DNA from: Escherichia coli
GTDB taxonomy: Bacteria > Pseudomonadota > Gammaproteobacteria > Enterobacterales > Enterobacteriaceae
Assembly: GCF_003334385.1 (NCBI RefSeq)
Contig: NZ_QOWN01000009.1
Length of the DNA stretch: 64,000 bases
Strand: one strand, 5' to 3'
The position numbers and the translations under genes are program-made. The notes under the pieces are model-generated. The model saw only the letters and a program-made list of their open reading frames with translations. It did no database searches and had not been told where the DNA came from. Of the stretch, positions 57,169 to 57,462 are shown piece by piece. Each line of letters opens with the position of its first letter. Position 1 is the stretch's first letter.

Positions 57169-57462
57169 ATGGAAAGAATAATGCAAAACAGAAAATGGAT
57201 TTTGACCTCGCTGGTAATGACTTTTTTCGGCATCCCCATACTGGCGCAATTTTTGGCGGTGGTTATTGCCATGCTGGGTGTCGGACTTGCCGGTATTATT
57301 GAAGTTTGTAATATCCTTATCACGCCAACAATTTACCTTCTGCTCAAAATTTTTATGCTGGCGCTGGGCGCATTAATGCTATTTTTCTCGGGGCGAGTGG
57401 GGAACGTGCCTGAGTTTTGTTACGTTGGGTATGATGGCGTGGGCTTTGCGGTAATTCCCTGA
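57169..57462 (+). CDS. Hypothetical small hydrophobic (membrane) protein
   Basis: 97 aa ORF with at least two predicted TM helices (ILTSLVMTFFGIPILAQFLAVVIAMLGVGLAGII...). Position corresponds to a small uncharacterised ORF in E. coli K-12 (yzgL as I recall); coding status unverified. Confidence 0.4.
   Translation: MERIMQNRKWILTSLVMTFFGIPILAQFLAVVIAMLGVGLAGIIEVCNILITPTIYLLLKIFMLALGALMLFFSGRVGNVPEFCYVGYDGVGFAVIP

Follow-up and report, generated by a model that had tools for sequence, protein, structure and literature searches.

Escherichia coli yzgL, a hydrophobic reading frame between glgP and glpD, as a very probable deletion remnant of a membrane-anchored PstS-like gene

The reading frame and its surroundings

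The open reading frame under study is located, in the 64-kb stretch of Escherichia coli DNA that was analysed (hereafter the window), between glgP, whose stop codon is at 57052, and the convergent glpD. It opens with an ATG 117 nt after the glgP stop and, according to the list of open reading frames of the window, its 97-residue product reads MERIMQNRKWILTS...GFAVIP*. A Kyte-Doolittle analysis with a 19-residue sliding window evidences hydrophobic regions at residues ~10–50 and ~46–77, with peaks of 2.48 and 2.41, and these two stretches suggest a product with two to three membrane-spanning segments. The coordinates, the hydropathy and the RNA fold of the upstream terminator agree with the original prediction of a hydrophobic 97-aa frame with transmembrane helices that follows the glgP terminator. 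The G+C content of the frame is 45%, to be compared with 51% in glgP, and the 97-aa sequence matched no family in NCBIfam, Pfam (best E = 5.4) or PADLOC. The features of the region are collected in the table.

Table. Features at the yzgL locus, in coordinates of the window
Feature	Position	Strand	Basis
glgP intrinsic terminator	hairpin 57067-57092, U tract to 57095	+	RNA fold; kept in other E. coli alleles
Perfect TATAAT, candidate -10 of the putative ancestral promoter	57146-57151	+	invariant in three-allele alignment
Reported frame, the longest open one, yzgL (b3427)	57169..57462	+	97 aa; 100% identical to K-12 BW25113
93-aa form from the second in-frame ATG (MQNRKW...)	57181..57462	+	family alignment; GGAAAG Shine-Dalgarno-like element 4-9 nt upstream
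Codons 1-77, authentic 5' end of the ancestral gene of 502-505 aa	57169..57399	+	97.8% identical to gene 1 of BL21(DE3) and EC10
GAGTG microhomology at the deletion junction	57395..57399		overlapping BLAST segments (57395-57402); base-by-base reading
Chimeric tail, 20 codons and stop, 3' end of gene 3 one base out of frame	57400..57462	+	96.8% identical to L005 5006-5068
Inverted REP pair (BIME)	~57507-57541 and 57576-57611		inverted repeat I1; REP motif at 57507

The hairpin that follows glgP has a folding energy of -17.1 kcal/mol (z = -3.56, with 1 of 200 shuffled sequences equally stable), and on the basis of this energy and z-score we consider the terminator to be real, although the hairpin was missed by a simple terminator scan. 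On the other side, as had been anticipated in placing the frame before a REP cluster, an inverted REP pair lies between the frame and the glpD stop codon (57668). This region is homologous to positions 5069-5274 of the BL21(DE3) locus, and a BIME is also present 3' of the intact gene cluster of that strain. An Rfam search of 56900-57800 returned REP-derived families only, all below threshold (ES036 with 31 bits against 37.6, and naRNA4 with 29.5 against 59.5). A small RNA gene at 57501-57654 was considered and rejected, because the similarity to ES036 (CssrF) and naRNA4 (CssrE) falls on the REP elements. Also, two minus-strand frames, at 57153-57323 (56 aa) and 57379-57621 (80 aa), overlap the frame under study and the REP cluster, and a weak sigma-70-like site is found on the same strand at 57323-57295; all of these are probably chance features.

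The region 57040-57670 (631 nt) is 100% identical to that of BW25113, of other K-12 records and of many phylogroup-A-like genomes. The frame is the annotated K-12 pseudogene yzgL (b3427), at the same place between glgP and glpD and with no difference between the two sequences, and is therefore already known. A conserved yzgL-glgP-glgA block has been named in a 2026 genotyping paper, in which glgP is printed 'glpP' (PMC13185298). RefSeq describes 'protein YzgL' as an incomplete pseudogene whose C-terminus is missing and whose extent corresponds to 57178-57399, and the remark that small frames of this kind are often annotated as pseudogenes thus holds in this case. What is added here to the yzgL annotation is its exact anatomy, namely the junction, the out-of-frame tail and the type of the donor cluster.

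Homologues from Klebsiella, Salmonella and other genera begin at an aligned M-K/Q-N position, equivalent to 57181, and forms of 93 aa dominate the matches in protein databases. As judged from this alignment, the ancestral start probably was the ATG at 57181, yielding 93 aa, rather than that at 57169. The UniProt entry, a 93-aa 'putative uncharacterized protein YzgL', agrees with the 57181 start. The intact coding sequence is started by RefSeq at an ATA (L002 4138 and L005 1932, corresponding to 57178), one codon before the 57181 ATG and three codons after the ATG equivalent to 57169; this ATA start looks like an artefact, since the homologues of other genera align with the ATG at 57181.

A scan of the plus strand for the sigma-70 consensus found no full promoter and no good -35 element, and returned a lone TATAAT. 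The upstream region is 96-97% identical to that of the intact alleles, with both the TATAAT and the GGAAAG element retained, so that the remnant may still be transcribed and perhaps translated, giving a stub that is hydrophobic and has two to three helices. A transcript is measurable, as yzgL is entered in a microarray study of CpxR-pathway induction as two-fold repressed at the transcript level (PMC2731931).

The intact gene and its cluster

About three quarters of 5,426 complete E. coli genomes have, from the same start, a gene of 502-505 aa, and in strains with an intact locus two to three further genes stand between this long gene and glpD. For most E. coli strains, similarity to the window ends at base 230-234 of the frame, from where the sequence continues into a gene annotated as 'PstS family phosphate ABC transporter substrate-binding protein'. 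Whether the 97-aa frame is kept in close relatives, on which the original prediction would stand or fall, is thus answered in the negative, as in most E. coli it continues to 502-505 aa. In BL21(DE3), gene 1 (502 aa) is followed by the genes of a 330-aa PstS-like lipoprotein (gene 2) and of a 200-aa membrane protein (gene 3); in EC10 the same ATG opens a frame of 505 aa, behind which come three genes and then glpD, and AR_451 has a third cluster arrangement. We refer to the arrangements as cluster types I, II and III, represented by the loci L005 (that of BL21), L002 and L009, respectively.

The product of the intact gene carries a PBP_like_2 domain (PF12849) at residues 250-485 (E = 4e-30), a part which is deleted in the window, and the 97-aa frame consequently lacks this PstS-type binding domain. 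Against TIGR02136 the intact protein scores 122.7 bits, below the cut-off of 206.6. It matches phosphate-binding proteins of the PDB by sequence, including 4q8r and 4gd5, and a Foldseek search with its predicted structure gave TM-scores of 0.72-0.78 (normalised to the target) against proteins of this class. The AlphaFold model places helices at residues 2-46, 53-82, 87-114, 124-144, 149-169 and 177-206, so that the first ~210 residues are predicted to form about six long helices of an N-terminal membrane domain. In the family alignment the conserved residues R93, W108, W148, P154 and Q199 are all located beyond the end of YzgL. A topology with the six predicted helices would put the binding domain on the cytoplasmic side, except if helix 1 forms a hairpin. 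The intact ancestor of yzgL therefore shares with PstS, the periplasmic phosphate-binding protein of the PstSCAB transporter, a PstS-like domain, of predicted fold and putative ligand binding. However, PstS has no membrane domain, whereas the ancestor has one of ~230 residues at its N-terminus, and the partner genes pstCAB adjoin it in none of the loci examined. A defence system was considered and rejected, since PADLOC matched neither the 97-aa frame nor any of the four proteins that the type II cluster encodes.

The same family is found in other genera. Identities over the long protein amount to 86% in E. albertii, 54% in K. oxytoca, ~50% in Salmonella and ~41% in Budviciaceae. Three of these, K. 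oxytoca, Salmonella and E. albertii, have the intact gene in the glgP-glpD interval and immediately ahead of glpD; in Salmonella a sugar-acid cluster stands between it and glgP. The occurrence of the same family at the same position in other genera indicates that the ancestral gene was long and that K-12 has a derived form.

A membrane-anchored PstS-like gene of ~500 aa is kept at the glgP-glpD position across Enterobacterales (L002, L005, L009, L010, L011 and L013), and the genes behind it vary. They comprise a second PstS-like lipoprotein, membrane proteins of ~200 aa, an ankyrin-like protein, proteins of 236 and 255 aa which have no Pfam match, and YbbD_head proteins (PF26610/PRK09781); in E. 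albertii eight genes occupy the locus. Family searches with these variable downstream genes gave weak or 'hypothetical protein' matches, and a literature search on ybbD returned nothing.

The deletion junction and its distribution

Comparison with the BL21(DE3) locus locates the point at which the frame departs from its ancestor. By BLAST, 57000-57402 of the window corresponds to L005 1755-2157 (97% identity) and 57395-57720 to L005 5001-5328 (91%). The pentamer GAGTG shared at the junction is present in L005 at 2149-2153 and at 5001-5005, and relative to BL21(DE3) the window is without 2,852 bp. Gene 1 has thereby lost its PF12849 domain and membrane helices 3-6, gene 2 is gone entirely, and gene 3 is missing for the greater part. 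In agreement, when the three BL21 proteins were searched by tblastn against the whole 64-kb window, only residues 1-85 of gene 1 and the C-terminus of gene 3 were recovered. The remaining 77 codons of gene 1 encode the first helix and the greater part of the second in the membrane domain as modelled by AlphaFold, and a tblastn comparison of residues 1-77 with the N-terminus of the conserved family gave E = 8e-40. It is this homology, and not the length of the frame, that makes the frame significant.

The tail that follows the junction belongs to gene 3. Read in the gene-3 frame, the window encodes GTCLSFVTLGMMAWALR*, identical to BL21 and with its stop at 57452-57454, whereas the yzgL frame reads the same DNA as GNVPEFCYVGYDGVGFAVIP*. 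The K-12 and BL21 tails differ at two nucleotides; both changes are silent when read as gene 3, whereas both are non-synonymous when read as yzgL, which would be expected of changes dating from a time when gene 3 still was a gene.

The complete short frame is present in 1,262 of the 5,426 complete E. coli genomes, all of which share the deletion junction. The segment formed by junction and tail is found at an identity of at least 99% in 1,221 genomes and of 95-99% in 54; in 868 further genomes it is matched at 90-95%, and there it is the genuine end of gene 3 within an intact cluster of type I. All forms of 93 or 97 aa have the same junction and the same tail, so that conservation of the frame on its own is confined to one structural allele.

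The deletion-type alleles are not uniform. Those of the M114/elppa4 type (L003 4359-4660 and L006 4775-5110) have the same junction as K-12 and a tail that is closest to K-12 (95.5%), yet their N-terminal part agrees fully (100%) with L007, the intact type III allele of WCHEC4533, and shows 89.7% identity to K-12. This combination of a shared junction with an N-terminal part that matches L007 instead of K-12 led us to consider recurrent deletion at the same pentamer; we favour, as the simplest account of the mosaic alleles, a single deletion and subsequent homologous recombination in the remnant or close to it. The frame is kept open in all deletion-type alleles examined, even in the mosaic alleles L003/L006, whose N-terminal part has diverged by ~10%.

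Among eight alleles, variable sites in codons 1-77 are distributed over the three codon positions as 16/5/33, which is a coding pattern, and dN/dS over these codons amounts to 0.2-0.27 among intact alleles. The first 77 codons are unusually divergent among E. coli alleles, with pS of 0.22-0.33 in the comparison of L003, L005, L007, L008 and L009. Also, between K-12 and several strains glpD (57668-59188) is ~95% identical and glgP 98.5-99.5%. The divergent sequences of yzgL and glpD suggest either old alleles or frequent recombination around a variable locus.

The gene is often inactivated by other routes than the deletion described here. WCHEC4533 has internal stops, gene 3 of CUVET17-1418 carries a frameshift, and the protein database holds many different shortened or frameshifted products of the long gene, Shigella being among their sources. 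IS1 also interrupts the remnant itself, in the K-12-like isolate F829 (L014 544-1241), and in strain 25-06685 (L015 3293-6116) an IS1-mediated deletion, flanked by IS1 copies, joins the middle of yzgL to a shortened rtcB, with glpD, glpE, glpG and glpR gone from this place.

Origin and status of yzgL

We regard it as very likely that yzgL is a non-functional pseudogene left behind by a deletion. In the ancestor, a three-gene cluster like that of BL21(DE3) would have been located between glgP and the convergent glpD, and a single deletion of 2,852 bp between the two GAGTG pentamers would have fused gene 1, at its codon 77, to the final ~55 nt of gene 3. Such a fusion in the wrong frame would have created the frame of 93/97 codons, which ends 8 nt beyond the original stop of gene 3, and the retained upstream region may still drive transcription, and perhaps translation, of a stub with two to three helices. 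Being without four of the about six predicted helices and without the whole binding domain, such a stub would be unable to perform the ancestral function. The remnant is probably dispensable, in view of the natural IS1 disruptions and of the fact that reporters have been integrated into the chromosome at yzgL (PMC6010332). Of this account, the homology, the junction, the change of frame and the distribution over the genomes are shown by the sequences, whereas a single origin of the deletion, residual expression and lack of function are inferred.

The explanation that competes most directly with the deletion remnant is that yzgL is a genuine gene for a small membrane protein, the stub being translated and having retained or newly acquired a function. 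Hydrophobicity and transmembrane-like segments would fit such a gene, as would the -10 hexamer and the Shine-Dalgarno-like element that are still in place, the transcript that is detectable and responds to Cpx induction (PMC2731931), and the frame that stays open in 1,262 genomes, diverged mosaic alleles included. However, when ~20 substitutions and no indels have accumulated, a frame as long as this one is expected to stay open by chance fairly often, and the short form occurs only in E. coli that bear the junction, the long gene being found in every outgroup and in most E. coli. Moreover, the tail is the sequence of another gene read out of frame, with no sign of selection in the yzgL frame, and the N-terminal part of K-12 differs from the nearest intact allele by three non-synonymous and two synonymous substitutions, too few for a statistical test, as against the dN/dS of 0.2-0.27 among intact alleles. 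The frame is also disrupted by IS1 in natural strains, and a search of the literature for evidence that yzgL (b3427) is translated, which covered the supplement of one ribosome-profiling start-site paper, gave nothing usable. The retained frame, the intact upstream region and the microarray transcript thus allow residual expression, but function is demonstrated by none of them, and we hold a stand-alone gene to be quite improbable. AcrZ and MgtS, validated small inner-membrane proteins of E. coli, are encoded by stand-alone frames that occur across species and have been detected experimentally. The yzgL frame resembles theirs in being short, hydrophobic and apparently intergenic, but differs in being a fragment of a larger gene, confined to the strains that bear the deletion.

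Two further readings concern the origin of the frame, and we give almost no credence to either. A chance open frame in non-coding intergenic DNA would be in keeping with the short length, the lower G+C content than that of glgP and the absence of a protein-family match, but this is already refuted by the homology of residues 1-77 to a family spread over the Enterobacterales, and the distribution of variable sites over the codon positions is that of coding sequence. As to coding status, which had been left uncertain, a coding origin is therefore established by the homology and the codon-position pattern, while the suggestion of a missed small membrane protein standing on its own found no support. 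Conversely, since the content of the glgP-glpD region is highly variable between strains, the short form might be thought ancestral and the long gene the product of a cassette inserted into yzgL elsewhere. Yet the long proteins form one conserved family, which other genera carry at this same position, their conserved membrane-domain residues run unbroken past residue 77, and a tail made of the end of gene 3, read out of frame, is predicted by a deletion but not by an insertion.

The deletion remnant, as the preferred reading, confirms the RefSeq pseudogene call for yzgL and explains the origin of the frame, which in itself matters little for biology. In practical terms, yzgL is not to be counted among the candidates for new small membrane proteins, and its use as a neutral site for chromosomal integration is supported. 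The wider lead lies outside the window, in the intact membrane-anchored PstS-like family and the variable genes behind it, for the study of which K-12 is unusable, since these genes are lost there. The divergence of the E. coli alleles (pS 0.22-0.33), the repeated inactivation and the variable gene set raise the thought, which we consider doubtful, that yzgL is the scar of a polymorphic Enterobacterales locus with a surface-exposed or conflict-related role (of receptor, sensing or immunity type) and not that of a phosphate transporter; if this were true, K-12 would simply have lost the system. In a weaker variant, the two-helix stub may still be made and affect the envelope.

Rearrangements are also seen in the DNA that adjoins the remnant. 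In strain elppa4 (L003 4644-5624) IS621, an element of the IS110 family, is inserted inside the REP cluster 3' of yzgL, a site that fits the known preference of IS621 for REP sequences. In strain M12 (L004 1-6022) a chaperone-usher fimbrial operon and a frameshifted hypothetical gene replace glgP and yzgL beside the REP cluster and glpD, an arrangement that indicates rearrangement at a hotspot.
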